A stretch of 64,000 bases of DNA from a virus (lineage: Duplodnaviria; Heunggongvirae; Uroviricota; Caudoviricetes). The notes under the pieces were generated by a model, which searched no databases, was not told the DNA's origin, and saw only the letters and a program-made list of their open reading frames with translations. Positions 3,053 through 41,141 of this stretch are shown here, one piece after another (positions within the stretch are counted from its first letter, which is position 1; every line of letters begins with the position of its first letter). The stretch lies in IMG/VR virus record IMGVR_UViG_3300028840_006985; one strand, given 5' to 3'. Position numbers and translations under genes: made by a program.

Positions 3053-4360
3053 ATGGGAGGGAATATTTTCTTTTCCATTTTTTATAATGGAGGCAAATTG
3101 TCAGATCCTAAAATCGACATAAATTTGGCTAATAAAATTGTCGAAGTAGGACAAGAAGGAATTATTGATTTTTTAAATAGTGGTATATCTCCGGAAATGT
3201 TAAAAGGAGATGGTAAAAAAATTTTATTATTTATTTTAGATTTTTGGAAAAAGTATAACTCATTGCCTTCTTTTGAATTAATTAGCGACAATACGGGACA
3301 TAAGATAGAAATTGTTAATGAACCAGTTAAATATTGGCTTGACGAGATTAAAAAACGCGTTCTGTTTGAAGTATTAAAGGACGGGTTAGAGCCTGTTTTA
3401 AAGCATATGAATGATTATAAACCAGATCAGGCTTTTGAAAGCATTATGACATTAGGGCGAGAAATGTGGAATTGTTTACCAAACATTTCCAATATAGAGT
3501 CGATTTTTTCTATTGGTCCACGATTAAAAGAGTATTATTTCAGGATAAAAGAGGGTAAGCTTGGTGTTCCTTCTCCATGGCCAACATTAACATTGGCAAG
3601 TCTTGGGTGGTGGCCAGGCGATTTAATAGCATGTGTAGGTAGGCCGGCTACAGGCAAGACGTGGTGTATGTTATTATTATCACATGCGGCATGGGTTAAA
3701 GGATATAAGGTATTATTTGTTTGTACAGAAATGTCAAGGCTAAAAGTGGCGCAACGTTTTTTTGCAATACATTTAAAATATCCTGCTGACAATCTTCGAA
3801 AAGCAAAATTAGGATATTTTGAAGAACAAGCTTTTTTTGATAGTATTGATGAGTTGTTAGAAACGAAAGGGTTTTATGTAGTCGGTGATGATTATGAAGT
3901 TAATTTAGAAGTTGTTGAGGGAGCTATTTATAAAGTTAGTCCTGATTTTGTGGTTATAGATGGATTATATTTGGTAAAGATTCCTGGCTATTCTGATAGG
4001 ACTCAAAGAATGGCAATGGCGGTAAATGAGATAAAAAATTTAATAAAACGGTACGGGGTGGCTTGTGCTATTTCTTCACAATTTAATCGACAGGTTAAAG
4101 CTAACGATCCTAAGACGGCAGATCTTGAAAATATAGGTTTAAGTGATAATATAGGATGGGCCGCGGATGTAGCCATTGGGCTTATTAGAACAACAGACAT
4201 GAAACAAGACAAAAAGATGTTAATAAAATTGTTAAAATTACGAGAGGGCGAACCTAAGGATTTAGTGGTTAATTGGAGTTTTGATACAATGGATTTCAGT
4301 GAAATTATTGATCCAGGGGAAAATAATACAATCATTGATGAAGGAGAATCTCCTTTTTAA
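3053..4360 (+). CDS. dnaB: DnaB-like replicative DNA helicase
   Basis: RecA-fold helicase core GDLIACVGRPATGKTWCML (Walker A), as in DnaB GDLIIVAARPSMGKT. Walker B-like VVIDGLYLV and an SSQFNR motif follow. Confidence 0.8.
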   Translation: MGGNIFFSIFYNGGKLSDPKIDINLANKIVEVGQEGIIDFLNSGISPEMLKGDGKKILLFILDFWKKYNSLPSFELISDNTGHKIEIVNEPVKYWLDEIKKRVLFEVLKDGLEPVLKHMNDYKPDQAFESIMTLGREMWNCLPNISNIESIFSIGPRLKEYYFRIKEGKLGVPSPWPTLTLASLGWWPGDLIACVGRPATGKTWCMLLLSHAAWVKGYKVLFVCTEMSRLKVAQRFFAIHLKYPADNLRKAKLGYFEEQAFFDSIDELLETKGFYVVGDDYEVNLEVVEGAIYKVSPDFVVIDGLYLVKIPGYSDRTQRMAMAVNEIKNLIKRYGVACAISSQFNRQVKANDPKTADLENIGLSDNIGWAADVAIGLIRTTDMKQDKKMLIKLLKLREGEPKDLVVNWSFDTMDFSEIIDPGENNTIIDEGESPF

Positions 4361-4371
4361 TTGGAGGAACA

Positions 4372-5007
4372 ATGAACTTGCAAGAAAGAATTGATTTTAT
4401 TAAATTTGTTTTTGAAGAAAAATTAATACCGATTTTGGAACAAAAAGGAAGTGATTATGGTAAGAAGAATAATATTAATTCCAGTTTTATTGAAGTAGCT
4501 AAAGATATTAATCGTAAGGATATAGACAAATACGATGTTTGGCAAGTATTCTTTAATAAGCATCTAATAGCGATTAGAACATGGTTGGAAGATCGAAGTG
4601 TACAGTCTGAGCCGATTGATGCAAGGATTGGAGATGCTATAAATTATTTATTCATTTTATGGTCAATGCTTAAGGATGATAATCTTTTAGAACAGAAACA
4701 GAAGCCAGAGATTGAGCAACACTTTGATGTGCATATAGGCAATGGGGATGGTAGTAATATTTTTTGCTGTAATCTTCCATGGGGAAATATTGTAGAAAGT
4801 ACCTTAATATTTGTAACTAAAAATCAAAATATGGATAATATGATTGTTTTTGATAATGGAAAAGGTGATTTATTAGGAGATATTGACTATAATTATCGCA
4901 ATGCATGTCGTATTGATTATAAAACGGGTGCTTTAAGGGTTTATTTTAAAGATTTTCTTGCTGATGGCAGAGAAATTATTATGAAAGTATGTTCTGTTAG
5001 GAAATGA
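4372..5007 (+). CDS. hypothetical protein (possible MazG-like all-alpha NTP pyrophosphohydrolase)
   Basis: Weak resemblance of ...DARIGDAINYLFILWSML to the MazG EExxE/D helix pattern. Speculative. Confidence 0.2.
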   Translation: MNLQERIDFIKFVFEEKLIPILEQKGSDYGKKNNINSSFIEVAKDINRKDIDKYDVWQVFFNKHLIAIRTWLEDRSVQSEPIDARIGDAINYLFILWSMLKDDNLLEQKQKPEIEQHFDVHIGNGDGSNIFCCNLPWGNIVESTLIFVTKNQNMDNMIVFDNGKGDLLGDIDYNYRNACRIDYKTGALRVYFKDFLADGREIIMKVCSVRK

Positions 5008-6002
5008 TTGAACATAAAATAATTAGTTTATTAACCTTAAAGGGATGTAGAAGAATTCGTGTCAGAGGGGGGCGCGTGACGGCTACTTGTCCTAACGAGC
5101 ATGTTCATACTAAAGGAATAGATAAACATCCTTCATTCAGTGCATTTATAAGCAATGGTCCGAGTTATTGTCAATGTTTTTCATGTGGTTTTGATGGAGT
5201 GTTGGAAAAGTTAGCTCACGAATGGGGATATGAAGGGTTTGATCGAGAAGAATATATATTAGAGCATAAAGAAAAAAAGAAAAAGTTTAAATTAAGAGGC
5301 GATCTGAATGCTAATTTAAAAATTTGGGGTAGAGATGAAAGTGAAGAATATTATAAATTTTTACCTGAAACAGCAATAGAGTCATTTATGGGGTGTTGTC
5401 CTCGATATATTTTAAATCGAGGCATATCATTAAGTACAGCGCAGAGGTGGAGTATAGGTTATGATAAAAAGAATTTAAGAGTAATATTTGTTGTGAGAGA
5501 TTTATCAAATAGATTATGTGGTGTAAGCGGAAGAAGTATTATTAATCAAAATCCTAAAATGTTACATTATTCTTGGGATATTAAAAATAGCAAATTGGAA
5601 CCTTTTATTGATTATAGTAGAGAAGATGACTTTCGAAGATTTAAAAAGAGTGATTTTTTATTTGGCGAACATCTTGTTACTAAGGCTCGTAGGGATCTTG
5701 TAATAGTGGAAGGTCATGTAGATGCAATCAAGATTGAACAGGCAGGATTTAACGTAGTGGCATTAATGGGCACTCAATTTAATGAAAAACAGATAAAAAA
5801 AATTATTGACCTTATTTCTACTGGACAATTTGTTATTTTAATGTTAGATGGAGATAGGGCAGGGAGAGAGGCTACTAAAAAATTAGAAAAGGAATTAGAT
5901 GGAGTATTAACTAAAAAAGTAAAATTACCTGACAATACAGATCCTGGGGATTTCAACGATCTGGATTTGAGTAATTTTATTACCAAGGCAACTATTTTTT
6001 AG
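5004..6002 (+). CDS. dnaG: DnaG-like DNA primase (zinc-binding domain plus TOPRIM)
   Basis: Zn motif CPNEHVH...HPSF....CQCFSCGFDG. TOPRIM motifs VIVEGHVDAIKIEQAG and LMLDGDRAGREA. Confidence 0.85.
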   Translation: MIEHKIISLLTLKGCRRIRVRGGRVTATCPNEHVHTKGIDKHPSFSAFISNGPSYCQCFSCGFDGVLEKLAHEWGYEGFDREEYILEHKEKKKKFKLRGDLNANLKIWGRDESEEYYKFLPETAIESFMGCCPRYILNRGISLSTAQRWSIGYDKKNLRVIFVVRDLSNRLCGVSGRSIINQNPKMLHYSWDIKNSKLEPFIDYSREDDFRRFKKSDFLFGEHLVTKARRDLVIVEGHVDAIKIEQAGFNVVALMGTQFNEKQIKKIIDLISTGQFVILMLDGDRAGREATKKLEKELDGVLTKKVKLPDNTDPGDFNDLDLSNFITKATIF

Positions 6003-6042
6003 AAAAACATTTTAAAAAGCAAAAAAGCAAAGGAAGAAAAAA

Positions 6043-6729
6043 ATGAGTTGGTTTAGTGAAGGTTATAAAGATTATAAAGAAAATAAAAAAATAGAAGAGC
6101 AAGAAAGAATAAAAGCACCTTTTAGATTTTTTTTATCACCTGGCGAGAAGAGAGATATTATTTTTGTAGATGATAGAGGGTTTCAGTTTTGGGAACATGT
6201 TGTATATAGGGAACCGGGAAATTTTAGAGGTCCTCGTGATTACTATACATGTTGTGAGAGAGTTTATCCGAAAGGGTGTCCTTTATGTGCGGCAGCGAAC
6301 AAGCGTTCTTATATGACAATGTATACTATTTTGGATACAATGGAGTGGGAGGATAAGAACGGCATTATCCGTAAGAATTCAAGAAAGTTGCTTCCTTTAA
6401 AAGGCGAGGCGTCAGACATTATGGAAAGTGTATCTGAAAATTTGAAACTTTCTGGGGGGAAAGGTTTGATAGGATATCGATGTACTTTTAAACGTGGCGA
6501 CGAACGAAGTATATCGACGGGTATCCATATTACTGGAAAAAATTATGTAGATTTAAATGATGACGAGTTTTTGTTTGTAACGCAAGATAAAAAGAAACAT
6601 CGGCCGCAACCGTTTAAGTATGAAGAAATTTTTAAACCTTTACCAAGAGAAAAATTAATACAGATTTTGACAACTCGGAGTGAATTAGATTCGGTTGAGT
6701 ATGGAAATAGCGATGATATTCCATTCTAA
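6043..6729 (+). CDS. hypothetical protein with a Cys4 zinc-ribbon-like motif
   Basis: CCERVYPKGCPLCAAANKRS. No recognisable family. Confidence 0.4.
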   Translation: MSWFSEGYKDYKENKKIEEQERIKAPFRFFLSPGEKRDIIFVDDRGFQFWEHVVYREPGNFRGPRDYYTCCERVYPKGCPLCAAANKRSYMTMYTILDTMEWEDKNGIIRKNSRKLLPLKGEASDIMESVSENLKLSGGKGLIGYRCTFKRGDERSISTGIHITGKNYVDLNDDEFLFVTQDKKKHRPQPFKYEEIFKPLPREKLIQILTTRSELDSVEYGNSDDIPF

Positions 6730-6756
6730 TTAGTTTAAAAAAAATAGGAGCGAATA

Positions 6757-7149
6757 ATGATCGGTTATGAGTATAATGTTATTGGTTGGTGTAAAAATAG
6801 AACGGTTTTAGGTTGTGAATGGCGTCTGATAGAATTGCTGTCAAAAATTTGTAATTCCATTGGCATGAGACAGTTATCAAGCGGTTCTGTTACGGTAGAA
6901 TGTGATTTGAATAAGCTAGATCGTGAACAATTTCAAGATGAAGGTGGTGTAACTGCTTATTTGATACTGAGTACGTCCCATATTGCAATACATGGTTGGC
7001 CGTATCGTGACATGAAGCGTGATGACGGGGGATATTTTTGGTTGAATGTATGTTCATGTCGATCATTTAACAACTCTGTTATAGATAGTACGTTAAAATC
7101 TGCATTAAATACAACTAATGTAGATACTCACATGTGGAGATATGGATAG
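6757..7149 (+). CDS. S-adenosylmethionine decarboxylase-like pyruvoyl-dependent enzyme (SpeH/AdoMetDC family)
   Basis: GGVTAYLILSTSHIAIHGWPYRD...FWLNVCSC matches the SpeH core [20 protein letters not shown]...IDLFTCG. Size about 130 aa, as for class 1b proenzymes. Confidence 0.55.
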   Translation: MIGYEYNVIGWCKNRTVLGCEWRLIELLSKICNSIGMRQLSSGSVTVECDLNKLDREQFQDEGGVTAYLILSTSHIAIHGWPYRDMKRDDGGYFWLNVCSCRSFNNSVIDSTLKSALNTTNVDTHMWRYG

Positions 7150-7187
7150 TTAAAATTTGCACTAAATACAATTAATGTAGATATTCC
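7081..7187. repeat. imperfect tandem duplication (about 50 bp x 2) spanning the stop codon of ORF 6757..7149
   Basis: gttaaaatctgcattaaatacaactaatgtagatact (7092-7138) and gttaaaatttgcactaaatacaattaatgtagatatt (7149-7186), each preceded by at(a/g)gatagt. Confidence 0.8.
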
Positions 7188-7236
7188 CTCCATTTTTAAT
7201 ACATCTTTAGATATTTAAAATTTTAATCAAATCAAT

Positions 7237-7265
7237 TTGACACATCTGTCAGATGTGTTACACTA
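7237..7265 (+). promoter_or_regulatory. sigma70-like promoter (TTGACA, -10 TACACT) with a 19-bp perfect palindrome ACACATCTGtCAGATGTGT between the elements
   Basis: TTGACA at 7237-7242. Palindrome 7240-7258. Lies upstream of the SNF2 gene. Same architecture as the promoters at 12758, 32463 and 52162. Confidence 0.55.
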
Positions 7266-7311
7266 ATATATAGATGATGATTTATTAACCCCTAACCAAG
7301 GAGAAGAAGAA

Positions 7312-9222
7312 GTGAAAGTTGTTTATGAGGATGGTAAATTTAAATGTTTCTCATCATATGATGAGAAACATTTACCTAAAAGTGCAGGGTGGTGGTGGGA
7401 CTCCGCCAACAAATATTGGTTTACTAAAGAAAAACATAAGGCACTTTTATTAAAGGATTATTTCACTCCATCAGCCTCGTCTGAGGCCAATCGCTGTTTT
7501 CAACCCCAACCTCAGTGCAATTCAATTGCATACAATGACAAAATACCATGTCCTGAGGGAATAAGATATTTTCCATTTCAGGAAGAGGGAATAAGATATT
7601 CCCTTTCTCGAGAGGGGACCCTTAACGCGTCAGAGATGGGGTGTGGCAAATCAATAATGGCATTAGGTCTTATTAATATTGATGAGACTCTTCGGAATAT
7701 ATTAATTATTTGTCCAGCGTCTTTGAAAATCAATTGGCAACGCGAATCTGAGAAATGGTTGGTTAGACCATTTGAGATTTATGTTATAAATAATAATAAA
7801 ATTTCTCCAAATGTAAATGCAAATTTGATTATTGTCAATTATGATCGCCTAAAAGGCGATATTCTTAAATATATTATGAAACGCAATTGGGATTTATTAA
7901 TTGTAGATGAAGCGCATGCCCTGAAAAACGGGGCGGCACAGAGAACAAAAAAAATTCTGGGAGTGCCGCCTACATGGCGTTATCATAATGGAAGCTGGAA
8001 ACAGATTAAACCACGAACCTTTGGTGTAATCGACCAATGTCGAAAAAAGGTGTTCTTAACTGGAACACCTGTTCTTAACCGACCCGTCGAACTATTTTCG
8101 CTTATCTCAGCCTTGGATTCGAAAAATTGGAGATCACGTTCAAAATTCGAAACAAGGTATTGCAATGCTCATATGGGAAAATGGGGGTGGGATAACAAGG
8201 GTGCTAGCAATATTGACGAGCTTAACTTCAAACTTAGATCGTCGATTATGTTTCGAAAAACAAAGGCGGAGGTTTTGCCTGATTTGCCTCCCAAAACCAG
8301 ACAAATTATAGTTCTGCCTGGTGACAGTAAGGTGAAATCATTGATTAAAGAAGAAAAAAAATTAAAGATCGATTTTTCGGATATCGAGGCGTTAACACCT
8401 GTGTCAACGGAGTTTCAACAGTTGTCAGAATTGCGTAAACGGTTAGCAATTGCGAAATTGCCTATGATAATCGAACATATAGAGAATATATTAGAAGGTA
8501 CTGAGAAGATTGTTATTTTTGCGCATCACCATGAGGTCATCGATGCGCTTCATGGCCATTTTCAGGCATCGGTAAAATTAGACGGTAGGAACAGTTTGGA
8601 GGCTAAGCAAAAAGCAATCGATGCATTTCAAGATGGTCAAGCTAGGATTTTTATTGGAAGCATCCAGGCCGCTGGTGTTGGAATTACACTTACCGCGGCA
8701 TCGCATGCGGTATTTGCAGAATCGGATTGGGTCCCGGCGAATTTGAGCCAAGCTGAAGATCGTCTGAATCGAATTGGTCAAAAAAATGCTGTTTTGATCC
8801 AACATTTAGTAGTGGATGGCACGTTGGATGCTAGAATGGTTCAGATAGTAGTGGAAAAACAAAAAATTATTGATGGTATTGTGAAACCAGTAGAGTTGAT
8901 CGAACCTAAGAAATCCGAACCACCAAAATCTAAACCATCAAAATCTAAACCTGGTAATGGTAAAAAAAATAATAACATTACTAACGAGCGCAGGGAGGCA
9001 CTTTGTTGTGCATTGATTAGTTTAGCTGGAAAATGTGACGGCGCTCGTCAGCAAGACGGGTGCGGGTTCAATAAGCTGGATACTAATTTTGGTACTAGTT
9101 TAGCAAAGCGGGGATCAGAACGTCCCCTGACTGACGAGGAGTTTTTAGCTGCGTTGAAAATGATTAAGAAGTACAAACGTCAGATTGAACCTAATTTGTT
9201 TGATTTGATTTATAAAAATTGA
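7312..9222 (+). CDS. SNF2-family DNA helicase / translocase
   Basis: GTG start with AAGGAG RBS. Motifs: GCGKSIMALGLI (motif I), LLIVDEAHALKN (DEAH box), FLTGTPVLNRPVELFSLISAL, and C-terminal helicase motifs QAEDRLNRIGQ. Confidence 0.85.
   Translation: MKVVYEDGKFKCFSSYDEKHLPKSAGWWWDSANKYWFTKEKHKALLLKDYFTPSASSEANRCFQPQPQCNSIAYNDKIPCPEGIRYFPFQEEGIRYSLSREGTLNASEMGCGKSIMALGLINIDETLRNILIICPASLKINWQRESEKWLVRPFEIYVINNNKISPNVNANLIIVNYDRLKGDILKYIMKRNWDLLIVDEAHALKNGAAQRTKKILGVPPTWRYHNGSWKQIKPRTFGVIDQCRKKVFLTGTPVLNRPVELFSLISALDSKNWRSRSKFETRYCNAHMGKWGWDNKGASNIDELNFKLRSSIMFRKTKAEVLPDLPPKTRQIIVLPGDSKVKSLIKEEKKLKIDFSDIEALTPVSTEFQQLSELRKRLAIAKLPMIIEHIENILEGTEKIVIFAHHHEVIDALHGHFQASVKLDGRNSLEAKQKAIDAFQDGQARIFIGSIQAAGVGITLTAASHAVFAESDWVPANLSQAEDRLNRIGQKNAVLIQHLVVDGTLDARMVQIVVEKQKIIDGIVKPVELIEPKKSEPPKSKPSKSKPGNGKKNNNITNERREALCCALISLAGKCDGARQQDGCGFNKLDTNFGTSLAKRGSERPLTDEEFLAALKMIKKYKRQIEPNLFDLIYKN
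7514..7530. promoter_or_regulatory. internal copy (16/17 match) of the AGTGCAATTCAATTGCA palindrome inside the SNF2 coding sequence
   Basis: agtgcaattcaattgca at 7514-7530, encoding ...QCNSIA... Matches the sites at 25274, 39194 and 40316. Confidence 0.5.
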
Positions 9223-9242
9223 AAAGGAGACAAAAATAGAAA

Positions 9243-9443
9243 ATGGATAATAATCAAAAATTAGTGTTCCATAAAAAAACCTTTAGACCCATAATTGAAA
9301 CCATAAGGGCGAGACAATCCATCATCAGTCTAGATAATAGAAACTCCCAAAGGATGAAGATAATGAAAATTGGTAAAAATTCTTTGGGAGTTTCAGGTGT
9401 TTTATTAAAATCTCTACGCAAATCTGGTTTTACCTTGCCTTAA
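9243..9443 (+). CDS. doubtful small ORF (66 aa) overlapping the intergenic repeat
   Basis: ORF track only. The SD-like AAGGAG lies about 13 nt from the ATG, and the ORF overlaps repeat copy 1. Confidence 0.15.
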   Translation: MDNNQKLVFHKKTFRPIIETIRARQSIISLDNRNSQRMKIMKIGKNSLGVSGVLLKSLRKSGFTLP

Positions 9444-10572: not shown

Positions 10573-10877
10573 TGGAAAAAACTTTAGAGTCAAAAATTAG
10601 TGTTTATAGACAATTTACTGAAGATGGAGTAATCATTAAAGAAAGTATTGACGAAAACGTTATTATGGTTCATCGATTTCCTGAGGGAGTTACACCTGCG
10701 ACAGTTCAAAGAGTGTTTTCTTCCACTGTCTCAACGGCTCCATACGAAAATATGAAAATTACTATTTCTATAACAGTTCCGTGTTACACAGAAGAAATTA
10801 GTAGTGCTATAAATTTTGCCAAAAATCAGTCTTTGCCTATTTTAGATGAAGAAGTTAAAAAATTAAAGGGGTTATAA
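10572..10877 (+). CDS. hypothetical protein
   Basis: ORF track. Start overlaps the NusG stop (ATGA-type overlap). Confidence 0.5.
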   Translation: MEKTLESKISVYRQFTEDGVIIKESIDENVIMVHRFPEGVTPATVQRVFSSTVSTAPYENMKITISITVPCYTEEISSAINFAKNQSLPILDEEVKKLKGL

Positions 10878-12037
10878 TGGCTGAGCAGTGGTATGACGAG
10901 AGCAATCCAGAACAGAGTGATAGCGAATCTCAGGAGGCTGAAATTATTGGAGAGGAACAAAAGCCTAAACAAAGCAAAGATGAAAGATCTGTCATAATAG
11001 CAGATCTTCGAAAAAAAATTAATAAAAAATTTGGCAAGGGAACCACAGCGCCAGGAAACAAACTTTTAGTGGAGATGGAGCGGATTCCGACGGGCATATT
11101 TTCGTTAGATGAAGCGTTGGGTGGTGGAATACCGGCTGGTAGGATGATAATGTTGAAGGGTGATGAGTCTGCATCTAAGACGACAATTGCCTTGAGGGCT
11201 ATTGGGAATGCTCAAAATATGTGTTCGAATTGTTGGGGATGGCCAACTTGTACTTGCGGAGAGAATAGAGATGCTTTTTGTTGTTTTCTTGATCAGGAGG
11301 GTGCGTTAGATATTCTATGGTCAGAACGATTTGTCGATCTATCTCGATTAGAGGTACAAAGACCGATTACAGCCGAGGAAACGGTAGAAGTTGGTAGCTG
11401 GTGGCTAAGGAGTGGTCAGGTTGATTTATTAGTTCTTGATTCGTTGGCGGCTATGGCAACGGCGGATGAGATTGAGGGAAAAAGTCATATGGGTCAATTA
11501 CCTCGATTAGGCAATGAGGCAATGCGTCGATGGCAGTCGGCGCAAAATGAATGTCGGAAAAAATATAATCGTATTCCTACAATTATATTAATCAATCAGG
11601 TACGTTCTAAAATTGGGGTTGTTTTTGGAGATCCTAGAACGTATCCGGGCGGTCATGGACAGCGGTTTAGCACAACCGCGGATATTGAGTTACGAAAGGG
11701 TAAATATACAATGGATAAGGACACAGGATCGCCGATATCTGTAAGCTTTGGCTTTAGGGTATCTAAAAATAAATCTGCTCCGGCAAACAGATCAGGAGAA
11801 TTTATCATGATGATGGCAGATACGGAAACGAAACAAATGGGTGACATATATGATGAGAAGGTTGTTGTAGCAGAATCAGAACAATTTGGGATTGTTAAAA
11901 AGGAAGGAAAAACTTATCGTTTAGGAGAACAAACTTTTGCATCAAAGATTGATACTATTAAATATATGTTGGAAAATAGAGATGTTTTTGAGGAACTTAA
12001 ATTAGAATTAATGAAGTTGAAATTAAGACAGGAATAA
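10877..12037 (+). CDS. recA: RecA/UvsX-like recombinase with a Cys-rich insertion
   Basis: KFGKGT...[34 protein letters not shown] parallels RecA QFGKGS...[46 protein letters not shown] matches CAFIDAEHALD, and DSLAAM matches DSVAAL. Confidence 0.85.
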   Translation: [386 protein letters not shown]

Positions 12038-18243: not shown

Positions 18244-19179
18244 ATGGCTGGACTTGTAAGTAAAGGTGACAAATCTATCATTTTACGAGATGGTAGCAAT
18301 GTGATTGTTACATCGAATACTAGAACCATAAAAGATTTAAGCAATAACGAATTGCGTGAGTATTCAGCTTATATAAGCGAGCGATCCTACAAGGACAATC
18401 TTCACTTAGCTGAGTCATTATTTTATATTTATAAAAATATATTGTATACAAAATGGACAAACAAAGAAACTGGAGAAAAATATAAAAGCTTCACAGAATA
18501 CGTTGAGTGTGAGTTAAAAAGAAGTTTAAGGACGGCTCGATATTTTTTATCAATTTGGACATGGTTTGGAGTTACGGTTGGAAGTGAAAAGGTTTTAAAA
18601 AAATTTGAAACTGTTGGTTGGGGAAAGCTTAAAGATTTAGTAGAGGTTGTTGACGAAAGCAATATGGATGAGTGGTATGAGAAAGCAACAACTTTAAGCT
18701 GTGAAGAATTAGCTGTGGAATGCAGGGCAGCGTTGGTCAGGAAGAGAATAAGTGATGGAACAGTTGATCCAGATGATGAGGAAGTAAAAAAAGCAAATGA
18801 TAATTTAAAACAAATTCGAGGTAGGGGTGATCGTGCAACGATTAAAAGAGATATAAATAATAATAAACCGTTAAAAACAATTACATTTAAAGTGGACAAT
18901 GATCAGCATTCAATGATTAAGGATGCAATGACAAGAGCACACGAGATTAGCGATCGAAGTTTTCGGCCGGAATTGTTTTCATTTATTGCTCAAGATTTTG
19001 TCGCTACTAATATGTTTAAGACGGGCCATGCTAAAAAAAGTGATCTTATAACCTATCTAAGAAAGCTTGAATCCTTATTGCCTCATATTAAATTAATAAT
19101 TGTTGATACTAACGAAGATGAAATTATTTATGGTTTAGATACTTTAAATAAGTGCATAGAATTAGCAGTATCTTCATGA
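18244..19179 (+). CDS. hypothetical protein
   Basis: ORF track. Confidence 0.5.
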   Translation: MAGLVSKGDKSIILRDGSNVIVTSNTRTIKDLSNNELREYSAYISERSYKDNLHLAESLFYIYKNILYTKWTNKETGEKYKSFTEYVECELKRSLRTARYFLSIWTWFGVTVGSEKVLKKFETVGWGKLKDLVEVVDESNMDEWYEKATTLSCEELAVECRAALVRKRISDGTVDPDDEEVKKANDNLKQIRGRGDRATIKRDINNNKPLKTITFKVDNDQHSMIKDAMTRAHEISDRSFRPELFSFIAQDFVATNMFKTGHAKKSDLITYLRKLESLLPHIKLIIVDTNEDEIIYGLDTLNKCIELAVSS

Positions 19180-20003
19180 ATGCATATCCCTTTTTAAAAT
19201 GGGTTGGTGGAAAAAGACAAATTATAGATAAGTTGTTGATTCATATTCCAAACCTGTTTAAGAATTATTATGAACCCTTTTTAGGAGGAGGGGCGTTATT
19301 TTTTACCTTATATAATACTGGGCAACTTAATAATAAAAAAATTTTTTTGTCAGATTTTAATCAAGAATTGATTGACTGTTATGTTGCTATTCGAGATGAT
19401 GTTCAATCTGTTATTTATTATTTAAAAGATCATTATTATGATCATGATTATTATTATCATATTCGAGATTTAGAACCTAATTTTCTTTCTCTTACAGAAC
19501 GAGCTGCAAGAACGATCTATCTCAACAGGACGGGATTTAATGGGTTATACAGGGTAAACAAGAAGGGAAAGTTCAATGTATTGTTTGGGAGATATGTTAA
19601 TCCGACAATTTGTGATGAAAAAAATCTTATAGCTGTATCTAGCGCTCTTAAAGATGTTATTATTTTATGTTGTTCTTTTGTAGAAATTGCGTATGATAAT
19701 ATTGAAAAACATGATTTTATTTATTTTGACCCTCCTTATATTCCCATATCTAAAACATCACATTTTGTTAATTATAATAAAATGGGGTTTAGTTGGGACG
19801 ATCAAGATAAACTTTTTAGAATTTTTTCTTTATTGACAAAAAGAAAAGCATATGCGATGCTTTCTAATTCTTATATTGATTGGGTAATAAAAAAATATCA
19901 AGAGTTTAATCAAAATATTATTTTTGCTAAACGTCGAGTGAATTCTCGAGGCAGCAAACGGGGACCCGTAAAAGAATTGCTTATATTAAATTATGGAGAA
20001 TGA
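19152..20003 (+). CDS. dam: Dam-type DNA N6-adenine methyltransferase
   Basis: FLKWVGGKRQIIDKLL...YYEPFLGGGALFF (E. coli Dam FLKWAGGKYPLL...VEPFVGAGSVF) and catalytic DPPY. Confidence 0.9.
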   Translation: MHRISSIFMNAYPFLKWVGGKRQIIDKLLIHIPNLFKNYYEPFLGGGALFFTLYNTGQLNNKKIFLSDFNQELIDCYVAIRDDVQSVIYYLKDHYYDHDYYYHIRDLEPNFLSLTERAARTIYLNRTGFNGLYRVNKKGKFNVLFGRYVNPTICDEKNLIAVSSALKDVIILCCSFVEIAYDNIEKHDFIYFDPPYIPISKTSHFVNYNKMGFSWDDQDKLFRIFSLLTKRKAYAMLSNSYIDWVIKKYQEFNQNIIFAKRRVNSRGSKRGPVKELLILNYGE

Positions 20004-21852: not shown

Positions 21853-22371
21853 ATGAGCTTACAAACGCGGATAATATATCCATTTGTAGAAACATGGCAA
21901 GATTATCCTGATTCGGTTAGTAATGCGGTATTGGTTTATTTTGTTGGCTGTGACAATTATTGTAAAGGTTGTCATAATCATCAATTAATTAATTATTATA
22001 ATAATGATGCCAGGTCTATTTTTCTTGGTAATTTTATTGAAGACTTAAACAATATGTGCACAAGGTGTAATACTGATAAAGTAGTTTTAAGTGGCGGGGA
22101 TCCGTTGTATTGTAAAAATGTGGAATTTGTTAAAAGTTTTTTAGTTCAGAACAATTTATCAGTTACTATTTACACTGGTTATGATTATAGTTATGTAAAA
22201 CGATGTGAAATATCTGGTTTTGATTTTATAAAAGTTGGAAAATTTATTCCAGAAGAAAGTCAACCTCCAGCCAAGAGTGACACATTTCTTAGATTAGCAT
22301 CAAAAAATCAAAAGATTTATAATAAAGACCTCATTGAAGTTACAGACGGCAATGGGGTCTTTTTCTTTTAG
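21853..22371 (+). CDS. nrdG: anaerobic ribonucleotide reductase activating protein (radical SAM)
   Basis: VYFVGCDNYCKGCHN matches the NrdG CxxxCxGCxN cluster (E. coli SGCVHECPGCYN). Size 172 aa. Sits immediately upstream of nrdD. Confidence 0.85.
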   Translation: MSLQTRIIYPFVETWQDYPDSVSNAVLVYFVGCDNYCKGCHNHQLINYYNNDARSIFLGNFIEDLNNMCTRCNTDKVVLSGGDPLYCKNVEFVKSFLVQNNLSVTIYTGYDYSYVKRCEISGFDFIKVGKFIPEESQPPAKSDTFLRLASKNQKIYNKDLIEVTDGNGVFFF

Positions 22372-22381
22372 GAGTCAACAT

Positions 22382-24811
22382 ATGAACACCTCTTCAACTC
22401 TGTCTGAATTTGTTTCTAATCCAACAACAACTAGAACAACTACAAATATTACAAATTCTTTAGTACAGTCTTTAACAAGAAAATACAAATTAGGATATGA
22501 TCTTTGGGATATAGTACAAAAAATAATGGCTATTCATGGGTTATCAAATGATAAGTTTGATTTTGTTGGTAATTTAAACAAGGTTTTGTGTAACAGATTA
22601 AATGATGTGAGCATTGATGACAATTCAAATAAGGTTGAAAAAACGTTTGAGGGATTAATACAGGAAGTTGTATGTCCTATTAAAAAATCAGTTGGTTATG
22701 ATTTTTTATATCAAACAATGCGAAAAATATATGGAAAGGAGGAAGCTAAAAGATTAAGCGGGGAGTTGTATGACTTTTCTTTATCATTAAATGATTCAAC
22801 TAAGATATTAATTCCTTACTGTTATTCTTTTAATGCATCTAATATTATATTAAATGGTAGAAAATTTGGTCAATTATATTCTAATCCACCTAAAAGGATC
22901 GAGTCGTATATAGCATGTTTAAATGAAACTATTCATCAAATGTCTCATCATGTCGCTGGAGCTTTAGCTGTTTCTACAATTTTTATAGATTTTTGTCATA
23001 TTTTATTAATAAAAGAAAAAATACCTTATTATGATATTATAAATAATATGGCGGTTCGTAAGAGAATAGAAAACGCCTTTCAAATGTTTGTACATTCGGT
23101 AAATCATTTATCTAGAAACAGCATTGAATCACCTTTTTCTAATATTTCAATCTTTGATAGACCCAAATTGAGAGCATTAATTGAGGGTATGAAATGGTAT
23201 TTTAATGATTTAAATACGAATAATGTGATTGAATATATTATAGCAATTCAAGATATATTTTTAGATTTTTTTGACAAAGGTGATCCATCTAAAAATGGAT
23301 TGCTTTATAGATTTCCTATTTGTACAGTCAATATTTCAAAGAAAAAAAAGGACAATGAATGGGTAGTCGAGGATGATAAGTTTCTTGAGTCAATAGTAAA
23401 AAGAGATATTTTTAGGTATAACATTTTTTCTAGTGAAGGAATAAAAATTGCTAGTTGTTGTTTTAGGGGAGATCAGCAAGTTGAAACAATGATTAATAGA
23501 GATGGAGTGATTTATGCAGATTTACCAACCTTTAAAGAGTTAATAGACGATATAGATGATTGTAACGATCGTAGAGTATATTATAATGGGTGGAAACATT
23601 TTGATAAGGTTAAAATAGGATATAATGATGATTGGATTGAGATTGTTTGTATGGATGGAAAAAAAATAACTTGTACTAAAGATCATTACTTTCCTTGTTT
23701 AAGTTATGAGGAAGGATTAATTAGATATTATGAATATAATAAAAGGGCAGAAGATTTAACAAGTAATGATTATTTAAAAACTTGTTGTAGTTTTATAAAA
23801 ATTAAAAAAGTTAATAAGGTTCAAAACAATGAAGGAGTTGCTTATTGTATTAATATTAGAAATGGTGAACCGTACTTTACATTGGCTAATGGAATTATAA
23901 CTCATAATTGTCGTCTTATTAACGACACAGAGATGTATGAACTAGGTGGGACAATTAATTCATTCGGTGGATCAGCAATATCAATGGGATCTCATCGTGT
24001 AGTTACAATAAATATTAATAGAATTGCTCTTGAGGCTAAAACTTTAGATGATTATTATGCGATTTTAAAGGAGAGAGTTAGAGATACGGCAAAAATTTTA
24101 AAAGCCCATAAAGAATTAATAAACATGACTACAAAGGAAGGCATTCAGATGTTTATTAAAATGGGTTGGATAGCGATGAGTAGGATGTTTTCAACGTTTG
24201 GAATATTGGGAATAGTTGAAGCAAAGGAAAATTTGGAAAAAAAATTTGGAAATAATGGTGATTATATTGAAGAAACTCTTAAATTAATGAATAAATTAGT
24301 TTTTGAATATTCAAAAAAATATGGTATATATGGCAATATTGAACAAATACCTGGCGAAAGTATGGCTGTTCGATTTGCTGAGGTAGATCGGTTATTATTT
24401 GGAGACGAAGCAATACCACAAAAAATATATTCAAATCAGTTTGTGCCTTTATGGGAAAATTCAACGATTTGGGAAAGGATGGCTGAAGATGGCAAATACA
24501 ATCAATTGATTACTGGGGGCGGAATTGTACATGTGCAGGTTGGAGAGAAAACAACCTCACAGCAGTCGAAAAAAATTATCAAATATGCTATTAAGGTAGG
24601 CAATGAGCATTTTGCTTTAAATGCGATCTATACGGAGTTTCAAGATGGTTCATTTATGCTTGGCAAGTATAAAATTAATCCTCAATCTGGCAGTCCTGCT
24701 AGGGAATATTATACAAGAGTTGTTGGTTTTTTTACTCCTGTTGGTAGTTGGAATAAGGTGAGACGAGAATGGGAGTTTCCACAACGAAAGTTCAACGGAG
24801 TAGACGTATGA
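22382..24811 (+). CDS. nrdD: anaerobic (class III) ribonucleoside-triphosphate reductase, intein-containing
   Basis: Start moved to the ATG at 22382, which follows AGGAG. A C-terminal glycyl-radical-like YYTRVVGFF motif. Adjacent to nrdG. No C-terminal Zn ribbon is seen. Confidence 0.7.
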   Translation: MNTSSTLSEFVSNPTTTRTTTNITNSLVQSLTRKYKLGYDLWDIVQKIMAIHGLSNDKFDFVGNLNKVLCNRLNDVSIDDNSNKVEKTFEGLIQEVVCPIKKSVGYDFLYQTMRKIYGKEEAKRLSGELYDFSLSLNDSTKILIPYCYSFNASNIILNGRKFGQLYSNPPKRIESYIACLNETIHQMSHHVAGALAVSTIFIDFCHILLIKEKIPYYDIINNMAVRKRIENAFQMFVHSVNHLSRNSIESPFSNISIFDRPKLRALIEGMKWYFNDLNTNNVIEYIIAIQDIFLDFFDKGDPSKNGLLYRFPICTVNISKKKKDNEWVVEDDKFLESIVKRDIFRYNIFSSEGIKIASCCFRGDQQVETMINRDGVIYADLPTFKELIDDIDDCNDRRVYYNGWKHFDKVKIGYNDDWIEIVCMDGKKITCTKDHYFPCLSYEEGLIRYYEYNKRAEDLTSNDYLKTCCSFIKIKKVNKVQNNEGVAYCINIRNGEPYFTLANGIITHNCRLINDTEMYELGGTINSFGGSAISMGSHRVVTININRIALEAKTLDDYYAILKERVRDTAKILKAHKELINMTTKEGIQMFIKMGWIAMSRMFSTFGILGIVEAKENLEKKFGNNGDYIEETLKLMNKLVFEYSKKYGIYGNIEQIPGESMAVRFAEVDRLLFGDEAIPQKIYSNQFVPLWENSTIWERMAEDGKYNQLITGGGIVHVQVGEKTTSQQSKKIIKYAIKVGNEHFALNAIYTEFQDGSFMLGKYKINPQSGSPAREYYTRVVGFFTPVGSWNKVRREWEFPQRKFNGVDV
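23459..23908 (+). mobile_element. mini-intein (150 aa, no homing-endonuclease domain) inserted in NrdD
   Basis: Begins CFRGDQQVETMI (block A, Cys1) and ends ...NGIITHN, followed by +1 Cys (CRLINDTEM). Extein junction reads IKIASC|CRLIND. Confidence 0.7.
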
Positions 24812-30431: not shown

Positions 30432-31121
30432 ATGAGTAAAGAAATTTGGGTTAAATTAAGCGGCTATAAGTACGAATATGAAGTATCCAATTATGGTTAT
30501 GTTAAATATTTAAAAAAAGGTAATTATGTTTATTTAACCAGAAGAGGAGGACAAAAAAGGGTTTTCTATACTTTTGTTTTGCAAGATGGAAAAACAAAAA
30601 ATGTCTCAGTAGGCAAATTGATATTGACAACTTTTAAAGATCCAGGGTGTCAAGGATTACATGCTGCATATAAAGATGATGATTTTCGCAATTGTCATCT
30701 TGATAACTTATACTGGACGCTTCCATCTGGATTGACCGAACAAAATGTGGTTGATCTTAGAGAGGAGCAACGCAAGGGAGTGTCTTTAAAAGATTTATCA
30801 AAAAAATATGGTTTACATTTTCGTAGTATTAAAGACATAATTGACGGTCGCGTGTGGCCAACAGCGGGGAAGCATTTAAAAAAAGATAAGGAGGTTAAAG
30901 CTAAGCAAGAGGTTAAAGCTAAGCAAGAGGTTAAAGCTAAGCAAGAGGTTAAAGTTAAGCAAGTTAAGCAAAAAACTAACAAAGAATTAAAGAGGACAAA
31001 AAAGGAAATAAAAACTTTTTTAGTTTCTTCTGGTGAAAGAAGTCTTGTTATGGCAAGAATAGCCAAAGTTGAAGAGATGTGTGATGGTATTTTTCGTGAT
31101 GGAAATACTTATTTGTTTTAA
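30432..31121 (+). CDS. HNH homing endonuclease-like protein (NUMOD4 plus HNH_3) with a KAKQEV tandem repeat
   Basis: N-terminal WVKLSGYKYEYEVSNYGYVK (NUMOD4). NCHLDNLYW (HNH_3). An 18-nt repeat gaggttaaagctaagcaa x3 at about 30888-30960. Confidence 0.5.
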   Translation: MSKEIWVKLSGYKYEYEVSNYGYVKYLKKGNYVYLTRRGGQKRVFYTFVLQDGKTKNVSVGKLILTTFKDPGCQGLHAAYKDDDFRNCHLDNLYWTLPSGLTEQNVVDLREEQRKGVSLKDLSKKYGLHFRSIKDIIDGRVWPTAGKHLKKDKEVKAKQEVKAKQEVKAKQEVKVKQVKQKTNKELKRTKKEIKTFLVSSGERSLVMARIAKVEEMCDGIFRDGNTYLF

Positions 31122-33478: not shown

Positions 33479-34177
33479 ATGGTAGAATGGAAGCCGTTGC
33501 GGGGCTATGAGTTATATCTAATATCATCAAATGGGGATATTAAAGATTTAATGACTGATCGATATCTGGTTGCGAGTTATCAAGAAAGTGGTCCAAGTGT
33601 ATTGCTTTTTAGTGAGAATGGATATACTCGCTGTAAAGTAGCAGATTTGGTTTTAAAAACTTTTTTGCGTCTCCCCGAAAAAGATGAGATTCTCTTTTTT
33701 TTTGATGGTAATTGTAATAATGTAAATATTTCTAATCTTTCATGGAAAAAAAAGAAAGAGGAAGTTGTTAAAAAAAAGCAGCAAATTGCCGATGATTATG
33801 TCTGTGCAATCAAATGTTCATTTTATTCGGGGAGCCGAAAGATTTCGCAATTAGCAGATTGTTATGATTTGGAAATTGAAGACATAAAAGATATTTTATT
33901 TAATCCTTGTTGGAACTATATTGATATTCCTGGAACGAAGATAATCGATAATAATGGTAAAAAAATTCCAGATAGAAAATTGCCTGAATTGGCGGTCTTT
34001 CTTAGAAAATGTAATAAGTATTATAAAAAACGGAAAATAGACAAAGGAGATATTGAAGAGGGTAAAAACGAAGAAGAAGAATATGATGATTATGAAAAAG
34101 AACTCCCTGAAATGTCATTAAGAGAATTTAGGAACTTTATAAGAAATAAAAATGGAGATGATAATGAAAAAAAATGA
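33479..34177 (+). CDS. second NUMOD4/HNH-like homing-endonuclease-like protein
   Basis: WKPLRGYELYLISSNGDIKD (NUMOD4-like) and GNCNNVNISNLSW (HNH_3-like). Acidic C-terminus. Confidence 0.35.
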   Translation: MVEWKPLRGYELYLISSNGDIKDLMTDRYLVASYQESGPSVLLFSENGYTRCKVADLVLKTFLRLPEKDEILFFFDGNCNNVNISNLSWKKKKEEVVKKKQQIADDYVCAIKCSFYSGSRKISQLADCYDLEIEDIKDILFNPCWNYIDIPGTKIIDNNGKKIPDRKLPELAVFLRKCNKYYKKRKIDKGDIEEGKNEEEEYDDYEKELPEMSLREFRNFIRNKNGDDNEKK

Positions 34178-39257: not shown

Positions 39258-40055
39258 ATGAGCATTAAGAGTTTTAAGGACATTATGAACCTTCATGGGC
39301 TAATAGGCCAAGACGAATCTGATTGGTATCAGCACCAAAACGGCGGCGGGTGGATAAAAAAGACAGCATATGTTAACAAGACAGTATATGTTGGGCCTTA
39401 TGCAATAGTTTATGGTAAGGCCTTAGTATCTGGTAAGGCAAAAATTAATGGGACGGCTCAGATTTATGGAACGGTTCGAATTTGGGATGAAGTAAAAGTT
39501 TATGGCAATGCAATAGTAGGTGGAAATGCGGTACTGTTTGACAATGTAGAAATTTATGACAATGCAAAAATTTATGATAATGTAGTAGTAGTTGATGAGG
39601 CAATGGTAGCCGGCGAAGCTATCATATATGATAATGTTCGAGTATATGATAATGCGCGAATTTATGGCAAAGCAAGGGCATTTGACGATGTACATGTAGG
39701 TAATAATGCAAGAGTATACGAGAATGCAGTATTATTTCATAAGACAAAAATTCGTGGCAACGCATGTGTTTATGGCAACGCATGTGTTAAGGGTTCTAGC
39801 ATTATTCGTGGTTATGTTCAAATTTGTGGTGAGGCAGAAGTTGTGGATAAAATTTATGAGGGAAATATCATAGTTTCAACCGCGACATATAAGGGATTGA
39901 AGACTAAAGACAATCAAAGTAAAAAAATTGAATCCAATTTAACACCTGAAGTACCTAAATATAATTCATCATGTCCTATTTGCGGGTCTCCGGCGCAAGA
40001 TTTAATATTTAAAATTTACTGTTCTAAGACAGGATGTCAAAATTATCATCCGTAG
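39258..40055 (+). CDS. left-handed beta-helix (hexapeptide-repeat) protein with a conserved N-terminal region and C-terminal zinc ribbon; paralog A
   Basis: At least 20 consecutive hexads [IV]-[YF]-[GD]-N-A-x. N-terminus MNLHGLIGQDESDWYQHQNGGGW. C-terminus SSCPICGSPAQDLIFKIYCSKTGCQNYHP. Confidence 0.7.
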   Translation: MSIKSFKDIMNLHGLIGQDESDWYQHQNGGGWIKKTAYVNKTVYVGPYAIVYGKALVSGKAKINGTAQIYGTVRIWDEVKVYGNAIVGGNAVLFDNVEIYDNAKIYDNVVVVDEAMVAGEAIIYDNVRVYDNARIYGKARAFDDVHVGNNARVYENAVLFHKTKIRGNACVYGNACVKGSSIIRGYVQICGEAEVVDKIYEGNIIVSTATYKGLKTKDNQSKKIESNLTPEVPKYNSSCPICGSPAQDLIFKIYCSKTGCQNYHP

Positions 40056-40315: not shown

Positions 40316-40334
40316 AGTGCAATTCAATTGCACT
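40316..40334. promoter_or_regulatory. palindrome AGTGCAATTCAATTGCACT immediately upstream of the RBS of ORF 40359
   Basis: Followed by gacacAAGGAGG and the ATG at 40359. Confidence 0.6.
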
Positions 40335-40358
40335 GACACAAGGAGGAAAGAAGAGAAA

Positions 40359-41141
40359 ATGGATTTTAGTCAGGTTATGAACCTTCATGGGCTAATAGGT
40401 CAAGACGAATCTGATTGGCATCAACACCAAAACGGCGGCGGGTGGGTACAGAATATAGCTAGAGTTGAGCCTGCAGCATATATTGGATCCGAGGCAATAG
40501 TTTATGGTCATGCGCGAATTTATGGCAAAGCGGAGGTGTACAATCAAGCTCGAGTATTCAACAGTGCACAAGTACATGGTCATGCTCAAGTATTTGATAA
40601 TGCATGGGTTTACGGAAATGCGGCAATATTTGATAATGCGAGAGTATTTGGATTTGCATCGGTTGACGATAATGCGAGAGTATATGGTGATGCAATAATA
40701 CGTGACAATACACAAGTATTTGGAAATGCGGAAGTTTATGATCATGTACAGATTGAAGAAAATGCAAGAATTTATGGTAATGCGCGAATTTATGGCCATG
40801 CAATGGTTTGTGATAATGCACAAGTTTGTGATAATGCACAAGTTTATGGCAATGCAAGGGTCGGCGGTTCTAGCAGTATTGAAGAATATGTTGAAGTTTG
40901 TGGTTGTATAAAAATTGCAGACAATAAAAGATACAGGGGAAATATTGTAATTACTACTACTAATGATGATAAAAAGCGTACTCTTCTTATTAAAAAATCT
41001 ACAGATGGACAGCCTAATCCGAAGAAAAAAATTGAATTATCTCAATATAATTCATCATGTCCTATTTGTAAATCACCAGCACAAGATTTAATATTTAAAG
41101 TTTACTGCTCCAAGGTGGGATGTCAAAATTATCATCTGTAA
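40359..41141 (+). CDS. left-handed beta-helix (hexapeptide-repeat) protein, paralog B
   Basis: Start trimmed to MDFSQ (AAGGAGG RBS). Ends are about 90-96% nt-identical to paralog A, while the central repeats have diverged. C-terminus SSCPICKSPAQDLIFKVYCSKVGCQNYHL. Confidence 0.7.
   Translation: MDFSQVMNLHGLIGQDESDWHQHQNGGGWVQNIARVEPAAYIGSEAIVYGHARIYGKAEVYNQARVFNSAQVHGHAQVFDNAWVYGNAAIFDNARVFGFASVDDNARVYGDAIIRDNTQVFGNAEVYDHVQIEENARIYGNARIYGHAMVCDNAQVCDNAQVYGNARVGGSSSIEEYVEVCGCIKIADNKRYRGNIVITTTNDDKKRTLLIKKSTDGQPNPKKKIELSQYNSSCPICKSPAQDLIFKVYCSKVGCQNYHL

Follow-up and report, generated by a model that had tools for sequence, protein, structure and literature searches.

Homologs of S-adenosylmethionine (AdoMet) decarboxylase (AdoMetDC, SpeD) are the most common polyamine enzymes in phage genomes (Li et al., 2023; PMC9992855). 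Those of phages S-PM2, phiYs40, phiN3, and P2559s have been validated as true AdoMetDCs, while other phage SpeD homologs are pyruvoyl-dependent L-arginine decarboxylases (ADC), as in pelagiphage HTVC201P, or L-ornithine decarboxylases (ODC) (PMC9992855). The neofunctionalized forms SpeDA and SpeDC are widespread in bacteria and archaea, and SpeDA is polyphyletic (PMC10407285). No sequence signature is therefore decisive for SpeDA. Here we describe a SpeD-like gene at positions 6757–7149 of a 64,000-nucleotide stretch of viral DNA (IMG/VR record IMGVR_UViG_3300028840_006985), which is referred to below as the window. An earlier note on this DNA regarded polyamine decarboxylases as unusual in phages. 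This view is at odds with the rank of AdoMetDC among phage polyamine enzymes (PMC9992855) and with the presence of the clade of the window gene on 73 IMG/VR contigs. Phage SpeD homologs are established auxiliary metabolic genes, and the window gene adds a member.

Our analysis leads us to expect, with high confidence, that the gene encodes a proenzyme whose Ser74 becomes a pyruvoyl group and that the product decarboxylates an alpha-amino acid. The substrate would be a basic amino acid, either L-arginine, which would be converted to agmatine, or L-ornithine, which would be converted to putrescine. We put the probability that sequence and context point correctly to one of these two, rather than to AdoMet, at about one in two. 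A basic amino acid is favored because two canonical features of AdoMetDC are lost, SpeE (spermidine synthase, an aminopropyltransferase) neighbors are missing, and a sister group lies beside arginase-family (agmatinase-like) genes. The gene would act as an auxiliary metabolic gene that raises the polyamine supply of the infected cell, as for other phage SpeD homologs.

Fold, active site, and clade of the window protein

The gene is an open reading frame (ORF) on the + strand (6757..7149) that starts with ATG, encodes 130 amino acids, and ends with a TAG stop at 7147-7149. These are exactly the positions named in the earlier note. A Shine-Dalgarno-like AGGAG, read from the sequence, is located 6 nt 5' of the ATG (6746..6750, +). 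The identical 130-aa protein is called in JGI, ENA, and Logan assemblies; the longest contig has 175,959 bp, and one 159,807-bp ENA contig with the identical protein was read.

The Pfam family PF02675 (AdoMet_dc) matches residues 17-126 with 34.7 bits against a gathering score (GA) of 25 (E 2.4e-8), which places the ORF in this family and not in an unrelated one. PHROG 3125, named 'S-adenosylmethionine decarboxylase', matches the protein with E 1.6e-8. A 7-sequence profile searched against the PDB matches the AdoMetDCs of Thermotoga maritima and Aquifex aeolicus, and the aligned motif LSTSHxxIHTWP…SC pairs Ser74, His79, and Cys101 with S63, H68, and C83 of T. maritima. A Ser, His, and Cys of this type are essential for self-processing and catalysis (Li et al.; PMC10407285). 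An alignment of 42 sequences of the clade shows no variation at G63, G64, S74, H75, H79, S100, and C101. From this alignment AlphaFold2 gave a model with a pLDDT of 94.2 and a pTM of 0.88. Its best PDB folds in a Foldseek search are the T. maritima and A. aeolicus AdoMetDC structures 1VR7, 1TLU, 1TMI, and 2III (TMq 0.70-0.74, TMt 0.75-0.81, probability 1.00, E 6e-8 to 6e-7; TM 0.74/0.81 for the model against 1VR7), and the next PDB matches are eukaryotic AdoMetDCs. The best structural matches in BFVD are phage AdoMetDC proenzymes. Judged by alignment and model, the protein is a class 1b AdoMetDC/SpeD fold, the alpha/beta sandwich known from prokaryotic protomers of about 120 aa, with an intact Ser/His/Cys set. 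The segment GGVTAYLILSTSHIAIHGWPYRD...LNVCSC, which the earlier note likened to the core of an AdoMetDC proenzyme with a conserved self-cleavage Ser, corresponds to residues 63-101. Its family and fold are borne out, as is the Ser in register with His79 and Cys101.

Self-processing to a pyruvoyl enzyme is highly probable on this residue set. By alignment to Glu62-Ser63 of T. maritima the cleavage site, if self-cleavage occurs, would lie between Thr73 and Ser74. The predicted beta chain would comprise residues 1-73 (6757..6975, +), and Ser74 (TCC, 6976..6978, +) would become the N-terminal pyruvoyl cofactor. The pyruvoyl enzyme would then decarboxylate its alpha-amino acid via a Schiff base, with His79 (6991..6993, +) and Cys101 (Cys101-Arg102 codons, 7057..7062, +) taking part in processing and protonation.

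Around this conserved core the protein carries features of its own clade. An acidic loop, F59-Q-D-E-G-G64 (6931..6948, +), found by alignments and by comparison of class consensus sequences, stands in place of the canonical class 1b F-x-P-Q-G loop. Its D61, E62, G63, and G64 are invariant across the sub-branch to which the protein belongs, and it is preceded by a 13-residue insertion relative to AdoMetDC. The HGWP motif is directly followed by a loop typical of the sub-branch, YRDMKRDDGGYF (residues 83-94; 7003..7038, +), which is coil at high pLDDT in the model. Arg102 replaces the Gly of the canonical TCG, giving SCR and the clade motif SCRxF; within the sub-branch, S100, C101, R102, and F104 do not vary.

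When 1.84 billion cluster representatives were searched exhaustively with a profile, 2,110 proteins passed E<=1e-3 and 255 of them also passed E<=1e-10. Nearly all of the best 150 matches have [ST]TSH instead of the canonical ESH. Three classes were drawn from this search and a genome scan. Class A is canonical-like (F-x-P-x-G…[ST]TSH…HTWPE…[ST]CG) and is found in Bacillota and Actinomycetota. Class B (FEDEGG…STSH…HTWPxR…SCRxF) is found mostly in metagenome-assembled genomes (MAGs) of Myxococcota and in many phages. Class C (D[DE]GG…TTSH…WPLR…SC[KR]xF) is found in Planctomycetota and Myxococcota. The clade of the window protein (FEDEGG…STSH…WPxR…SCRxF) is large: it is represented by the 255 cluster representatives at E<=1e-10 and occurs in many Myxococcota MAGs besides the 73 IMG/VR contigs. 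Within class B the protein falls in a sub-branch with P0002, P0020, P0023, P0025, P0039, P0040, P0052, P0062, and P0080, which share 40-57% identity with it. HGWP and the extra loop RDxxRDDGGFFW set the sub-branch apart; this loop is confined to the sub-branch (P0002, P0020, P0023, P0025, P0039, P0052, P0062). Sub-branch members have so far been found only in distant T4-like phages. A neighbor-joining tree of about 130 columns, to be taken as a rough guide only, places the sub-branch well apart from class A, the HTVC201P ADC, and the phiN3 SpeD. By these sequence comparisons the clade is distinct from canonical SpeD, the HTVC201P ADC, the phiN3 SpeD, and SpeDC.

Two viral homologs met in the scan have unusual architectures. 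A 1,522-aa ORF of IMG/VR UViG_3300028595_000040 (L049, 9833-14401) begins with a canonical-like AdoMetDC domain (…STSHLAIHTWPE…LSCN), which is followed by two repeats with DPPY motifs and a long C-terminal region. DPPY motifs are typical of N6-adenine methyltransferases. By its motifs this ORF joins a SpeD domain to domains resembling SAM-dependent enzymes (SAM, AdoMet), which is an unusual combination. The class C homolog of UViG_3300037470_000856 (L044, 9791-10252) has the active-site motif TTSHLSIH three times in tandem; either the cleavage site has truly been triplicated in frame or the assembly is at fault.

Substrate: genomic context and sequence tests

The gene neighborhoods of the classes differ and are the most telling of the substrate tests. 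Two SpeE domains and two arginase-family proteins were searched by tblastn against every fetched locus. SpeE lies near 34 of the 37 class A loci (median distance 955 bp, maximum 2.6 kb), none of which has an arginase-family gene nearby. Neither SpeE nor an arginase-family gene was found near the 28 cellular class B loci, the 73 IMG/VR viral loci, or the eight loci made up of the window and L162-L168. The 13 cellular class C loci have no SpeE nearby, and four of them have an arginase-family gene within about 1 kb. Class C loci of the Planctomycetota type show a recurring arrangement of LMWPc (LMW phosphatase-like), SpeD-like, arginase-family, and major facilitator superfamily (MFS) transporter genes. 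It is complete in L114 and partial in L116 (arginase, MFS), L119 (LMWPc, arginase), and L112 (LMWPc); the MFS gene follows the arginase-family gene in both class C loci that were scanned for it (L114 and L116). No speY/DHS gene was found beside the class C genes, where the LMWPc, arginase-family, and MFS genes stand instead. The arrangement in L112, L114, L116, and L119 resembles a module that leads from arginine to putrescine and includes a transporter. Li et al. predict SpeDA where a SpeD homolog without SpeE is located beside an agmatinase gene. The class C context argues against a coupling of the super-clade marked by WPxR and SC[RK]xF to aminopropyl transfer, and for agmatine as the product of class C at least.

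Nine single proteins of 434-535 aa from Bacillaceae and Brevibacillus (L130, L131, L132, L139, L141, L142, L143, L145, L159) begin with a SpeD-type domain with STSH. By tblastn a SpeE-like domain is located in the C-terminal part of all nine, and in L130 and L141 Pfam finds PF02675 (113-121 bits) fused to the spermidine/spermine synthase family PF01564. They resemble the AdoMetDC-aminopropyltransferase fusions of Pelagibacter, which are functional (PMC11107197).

Sequence tests of the substrate were run with controls. With TIGR03330, the NCBIfam equivalog for class 1b AdoMetDC, the window protein scores 30.0 bits, below the cut-off of 75.65. The S-T4 SpeD scores 121.9 bits, the N-terminal domain of a Bacillaceae fusion 123.8 bits, and a Lachnospiraceae homolog 108.6 bits, while the HTVC201P ADC, at 38.4 bits, is below the cut-off. 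The residue before the pyruvoyl Ser is Thr73 in the window protein and Glu in canonical AdoMetDC, in which it contacts the adenine base (PMC1282579). The Pro of the F-x-P-x-G loop is absent from FQDEGG, while the W-P proline, P82, is present. According to the legend of Fig. 8 in PMC10407285, one conserved Pro separates true AdoMetDC from ADC. We infer that this is the loop Pro, because the phiN3 SpeD has no W-P proline and keeps the pre-strand loop Pro. The strand-1 acidic residue (T. maritima Glu11) is Ile in the window protein; this is weak evidence, because class C keeps Asp here and the canonical SpeD of cyanophage S-T4 has Thr. Acidic residues in the pre-strand loop are common to the proven ADC of HTVC201P (DKEGNKG) and to SpeDC domains (GEDERV). 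Set against the features looked for in a SpeDA, none of which is decisive, the window protein keeps Ser, His, and Cys, has no loop Pro, and has no SpeE linkage; arginase-family genes stand beside class C only and not beside class B or phage genes.

Several observations weigh against a basic amino acid as the substrate. The phiN3 SpeD, which is experimentally a true AdoMetDC, scores only 28.9 bits with TIGR03330. The low score of the window protein thus shows divergence and does not prove a different activity, and TIGR03330 was rejected as a substrate discriminator. The Thr-for-Glu exchange was rejected likewise: class A proteins carry the Thr too and are either fused to spermidine synthase domains, as in L130 and L141, or encoded beside such genes, and the SpeE-fused Bacillaceae and the SpeE-linked Lachnospiraceae homologs carry STSH and score 109-124 bits with TIGR03330. 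The diagnostic residues of SpeDC are Gln, Thr, Phe, and Tyr (PMC10407285). With these positions mapped from the SpeDC domains printed in Fig. S5 of that paper, the window protein has one of the four, the Thr, with Leu at the Gln, Gly80 at the Phe, and Trp95 at the Tyr position, and SpeDC identity was rejected. His75 and the W-P of the canonical ESHxxxHTWP motif are kept. The neighbors of the class B genes in Myxococcota (27 loci) encode FabH, isocitrate lyase, and thioredoxin-like proteins and give no polyamine signal. Most phage SpeDs are served by the SpeE of the host, and the absence of a phage SpeE is for that reason weak evidence. Scans of the window cover 64 kb of a genome of about 160-176 kb, and among the ORFs scanned with Pfam there was no spermidine synthase, no agmatinase, and no recognizable DNA-hypermodification enzyme. 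The earlier note had advised a look for neighboring aminopropyltransferase or DNA-modification genes; no aminopropyltransferase or DNA-hypermodification gene was found among these ORFs.

Part of this evidence also speaks for a true AdoMetDC (EC 4.1.1.50), which would feed decarboxylated AdoMet to the spermidine synthase of the host, as the validated SpeDs of S-PM2, phiYs40, phiN3, and P2559s do for comparison. This is a serious but clearly less probable alternative. The Pfam and PHROG family names agree with it, the Ser/His/Cys set, His75, and WP are retained, and STSH variants fused to SpeE exist. AdoMetDC is the commonest phage polyamine enzyme, and phiN3 offers an equally divergent example (28.9 bits) that is a true AdoMetDC (PMC9992855). 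It is set back by the TIGR03330 score far under the equivalog cut-off, by the joint loss of the Glu of ES, the loop Pro, and the strand-1 acidic residue, and by a clade with no SpeE link at all, compared with 34/37 canonical-like loci. The link of the sister group to arginase-family genes also disfavors it, and a SAM lyase homolog of the same phage would compete for the substrate. The earlier description of the gene product as an AdoMetDC-like pyruvoyl enzyme thus holds for family, fold, and active-site residues; AdoMetDC activity itself is disfavored by the TIGR03330 result, the lost Glu and loop Pro, and the missing SpeE link.

The SAM lyase homolog (48229-48906, +) matches the SAM lyase family PF23780 with 33.5 bits against a GA of 28. 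It raises the idea that decarboxylation of SAM by the SpeD-like protein, together with the lyase homolog, starves SAM-dependent restriction or BREX. Depletion of SAM is an established anti-restriction strategy of phages (PMC7877911). We consider it very improbable. It needs AdoMet as the substrate, which the evidence disfavors, and pyruvoyl AdoMetDCs are slow enzymes by kcat/Km (PMC9992855). The phage has SAM-dependent enzymes of its own, a Dam-type N6-adenine methyltransferase (19152-20003; PF02086, 179 bits) and, at 21853-22371, an NrdG-like radical SAM activase. PADLOC gave no match for the ORF, its neighbors, or the SAM lyase homolog, and no SAM lyase was found in the other sub-branch loci. 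Judged from its gene content, the phage uses SAM and may also destroy it.

The invariants that the clade has near its active site (Arg after Cys, WPxR, and, in the sub-branch, the loop RDxxRDDGGFFW) are absent from the characterized groups. They would suit another amino-acid-like substrate, neither AdoMet nor Arg or Orn, for example a precursor for DNA or nucleotide modification. The class B neighborhoods without a polyamine signal and the frequent location of phage homologs among DNA-metabolism genes agree with such a substrate, which we nevertheless hold to be unlikely. The window ORFs scanned include no hydroxymethylase, DNA kinase, or aminoacyl or glycosyl transferase, the position of the gene is not conserved, and the neofunctionalizations of SpeD known so far all stay within polyamine precursors. 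The suggestion in the earlier note that the enzyme might serve base hypermodification likewise finds no hypermodification genes among these ORFs. A related and rather doubtful proposal, read from the sequences, is that the FEDEGG-STSH-WPxR-SCRxF clade would be a further independent neofunctionalization of SpeD with a substrate or role new for pyruvoyl enzymes. In the phage sub-branch, with its RDxxRDDGGFFW loop and its usual place just ahead of the prohead protease gene, the protein might have a purpose related to the virion or to DNA and not to general polyamine supply.

With decarboxylation of Arg or Orn as the preferred reading, the name 'S-adenosylmethionine decarboxylase' that automated annotation gives to this clade is probably wrong. 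Once the activity of a single member is established, the names of hundreds of phage and Myxococcota proteins could be settled or amended, and it would be seen whether Arg/Orn decarboxylation arose yet again from the SpeD fold.

Source phage, neighboring genes, and the 3' repeat

The window is densely coded, has about 32% GC, and carries nearly all of its genes on the + strand. Its T4-type head genes encode a portal, a prohead protease of family S77, gp13, and a gp23-like capsid protein, for which no entry of the phage collection exceeds about 32% identity. From these head genes and the capsid divergence, the source is a distant, uncultured T4-like phage of about 160-176 kb and 32% GC. A DNA similarity search with positions 5000-9300 gave no match among 50,697 phage records, and the phage therefore has no annotated close relative. 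A tblastn search of the 6757-7149 ORF against the phage collection gave two weak megaphage matches only.

The SpeD-like gene is surrounded by genes for DnaB (3053-4360), primase (5004-6002), a SNF2 helicase (7312-9222), and RecA (10877-12037). It lies next to replication genes, as the earlier note said; this holds in the window and is not conserved in the closest relatives. Five other sub-branch loci are from phages with a GC of 43-60%, and their proteins are 46-51% identical to the window protein. In three distinct contigs, L006 (= L166), L162, and L168, the SpeD-like gene is located away from replication genes and precedes the prohead protease and major capsid genes by about 0.5 kb. In these phages, unlike in the window, the gene may therefore be expressed late, together with the head module. 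Other class B phage genes adjoin PD-(D/E)XK, ParB, and DNA methylase genes, and further ones adjoin DNA polymerase A, SbcCD-like, and AAA_24 genes. Because the positions differ among relatives, adjacency to primase and SNF2 helicase is not a conserved functional link. A location among replication genes is common in phage homologs: in HTVC201P the gene lies between exonuclease and ribonucleotide reductase genes, and in cyanophage S-T4 between clamp and clamp-loader genes.

Between primase and the SpeD-like gene lies an ORF of 228 aa (6043-6729, +) for a putative single-stranded DNA (ssDNA)-binding protein. Its product has a Cys cluster (YYTCCERVYPKGCPLCAA) and ends in ...GNSDDIPF, the C-terminal tip motif of bacterial ssDNA-binding protein (SSB). 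The SSB of Escherichia coli ends in DDDIPF. The ORF has no Pfam or PDB sequence match and matches PHROG 17226, which is functionally unannotated. Its product probably binds ssDNA for the phage and has a tail imitating that of host SSB.

The 3' end of the SpeD-like gene contains a repeat. Copy 1 (7092..7129, +) is located inside the coding region and encodes LKSALNTTNVDT. The first base of copy 2 (7149..7186, +) is the final base of the stop codon; translated in the same frame, this copy would give LKFALNTINVDI. The repeat is 38 nt long with 34/38 positions identical (89%), and the offset of 57 nt keeps the copies in frame. A degenerate search with its pattern finds 2 copies in 64 kb against 0.00 expected, and the 3' end of the gene with the spacer is base-for-base identical in the three assemblies. 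A weak partial third copy of 23 nt (7210..7232, +), found by the repeat search and 78% identical to the start of copy 2, could be due to chance. Within the 57-nt unit the first 38 nt are alike and the following 19 nt are unrelated, and copy 2 stands in the intergenic spacer past the stop. The repeat is thus not a clean tandem duplication of a 57-nt unit. The earlier note had described an imperfect tandem duplication of about 50 bp that relocates the stop codon. The repeat itself is real, with the length, offset, and downstream second copy given here; relocation of the stop codon finds no support. The C-terminus after copy 1, THMWRYG, resembles RAHSWIQ of P0002 and SQRWVS of P0020, and tails differ in length across the sub-branch: that of the window protein is the shortest, and P0052 and P0062 end only 4-6 residues later. 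As speculation, the repeat may be a scar left when the gene moved to its present place.

The 38-nt duplication and the shortest C-terminus of the sub-branch could also be taken as recent damage to a decaying or non-catalytic remnant. This is highly improbable, since the catalytic and clade-invariant residues are all intact, the last strand is modeled at pLDDT 96-98, and the ORF has a good ribosome-binding site and is identical in three assemblies. In addition, homologs at 46-51% identity persist in phages whose GC ranges from 32 to 60%. Read-through of the TAG into copy 2 was rejected: with the standard code the window shows densely packed, unbroken ORFs, it has no tRNAs, and the added residues would repeat the last strand. 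A function of the repeats as iterons or an operator is unsupported, given spacings of 57 and 65 nt and only two good copies. The best promoter in the spacer, which precedes the SNF2 helicase gene, is a sigma-70-like TTGACA-16-TACACT with TG at 7237-7264. An 18-nt imperfect palindrome, ATCAATTTGACACATCTG / CAGATGTGTTACACTAAT (7231-7267), overlaps it and looks like an operator placed over the promoter.

Other genes of the window include an anaerobic ribonucleotide reductase, NrdD (22334-24811, +; PF13597, 217 bits), which points to an anaerobic or facultative host. Residues 426-482 of NrdD have a sub-threshold intein-splicing match (27.9 bits against a GA of 35.8), possibly an intein. Two adjacent paralogous ORFs (39258-40055 and 40317-41141, both +) each match the functionally unannotated PHROGs 5070 and 7964, with two matched stretches each. 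Homing-endonuclease-like ORFs at 30432-31121 and 33479-34177 (both +), one with a NUMOD4 motif and one matching the HNH PHROG 959, are scattered among small genes.

Comparison with known systems

The AdoMetDCs of T. maritima (1TLU, 1TMI, 1VR7) and A. aeolicus (2III) share the fold of the window protein, are of similar size (about 120-135 aa), and have the pyruvoyl Ser, His, and Cys in register. Identity is about 19%, and the window protein differs by Thr for Glu62, FQDEGG for F-L-P-Y-G, and SCR for TCG, as well as by the 13-residue insertion and a loop of 9-12 residues after WP.

The HTVC201P SpeD homolog AXH71538 is an experimentally established pyruvoyl L-arginine decarboxylase (PMC9992855). 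Like the window protein, it is a phage SpeD fold of about 120 aa with Thr-Ser-His and an acidic loop without Pro, is encoded among replication genes, and falls under the TIGR03330 cut-off. It differs in its Gln-x-x-Glu-Thr-Ser, in HSWD with no Pro after W, and in YTC where the window protein has SCR, and it is far from the window protein in the neighbor-joining tree (distance 0.93). The SpeDC ODCs share with the window protein a Thr before the Ser, a loop of the E-D-E type (GEDERV), and SC followed by an aromatic residue and Asp; they have QxxETSLxSGHF…Y, whereas the window protein keeps SH…HGWP.

The SpeD of phiN3 (AKF13430) is a true AdoMetDC even though it clusters with ODCs (PMC9992855). 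This phage homolog resembles the window protein in its strong divergence, its FSCKDF-type motif, and its TIGR03330 score, which is just as low, but it has QDSH…AHFCD, keeps the pre-strand loop Pro, and has no WP. The cyanophage SpeDs, of which that of S-PM2 is validated and that of S-T4 was examined here, are auxiliary genes of T4-like phages located among replication genes, as in the window. The S-T4 protein differs from the window protein in its fully canonical FEPQG…AESH…HTWPE…TCG and its score of 122 bits with TIGR03330.

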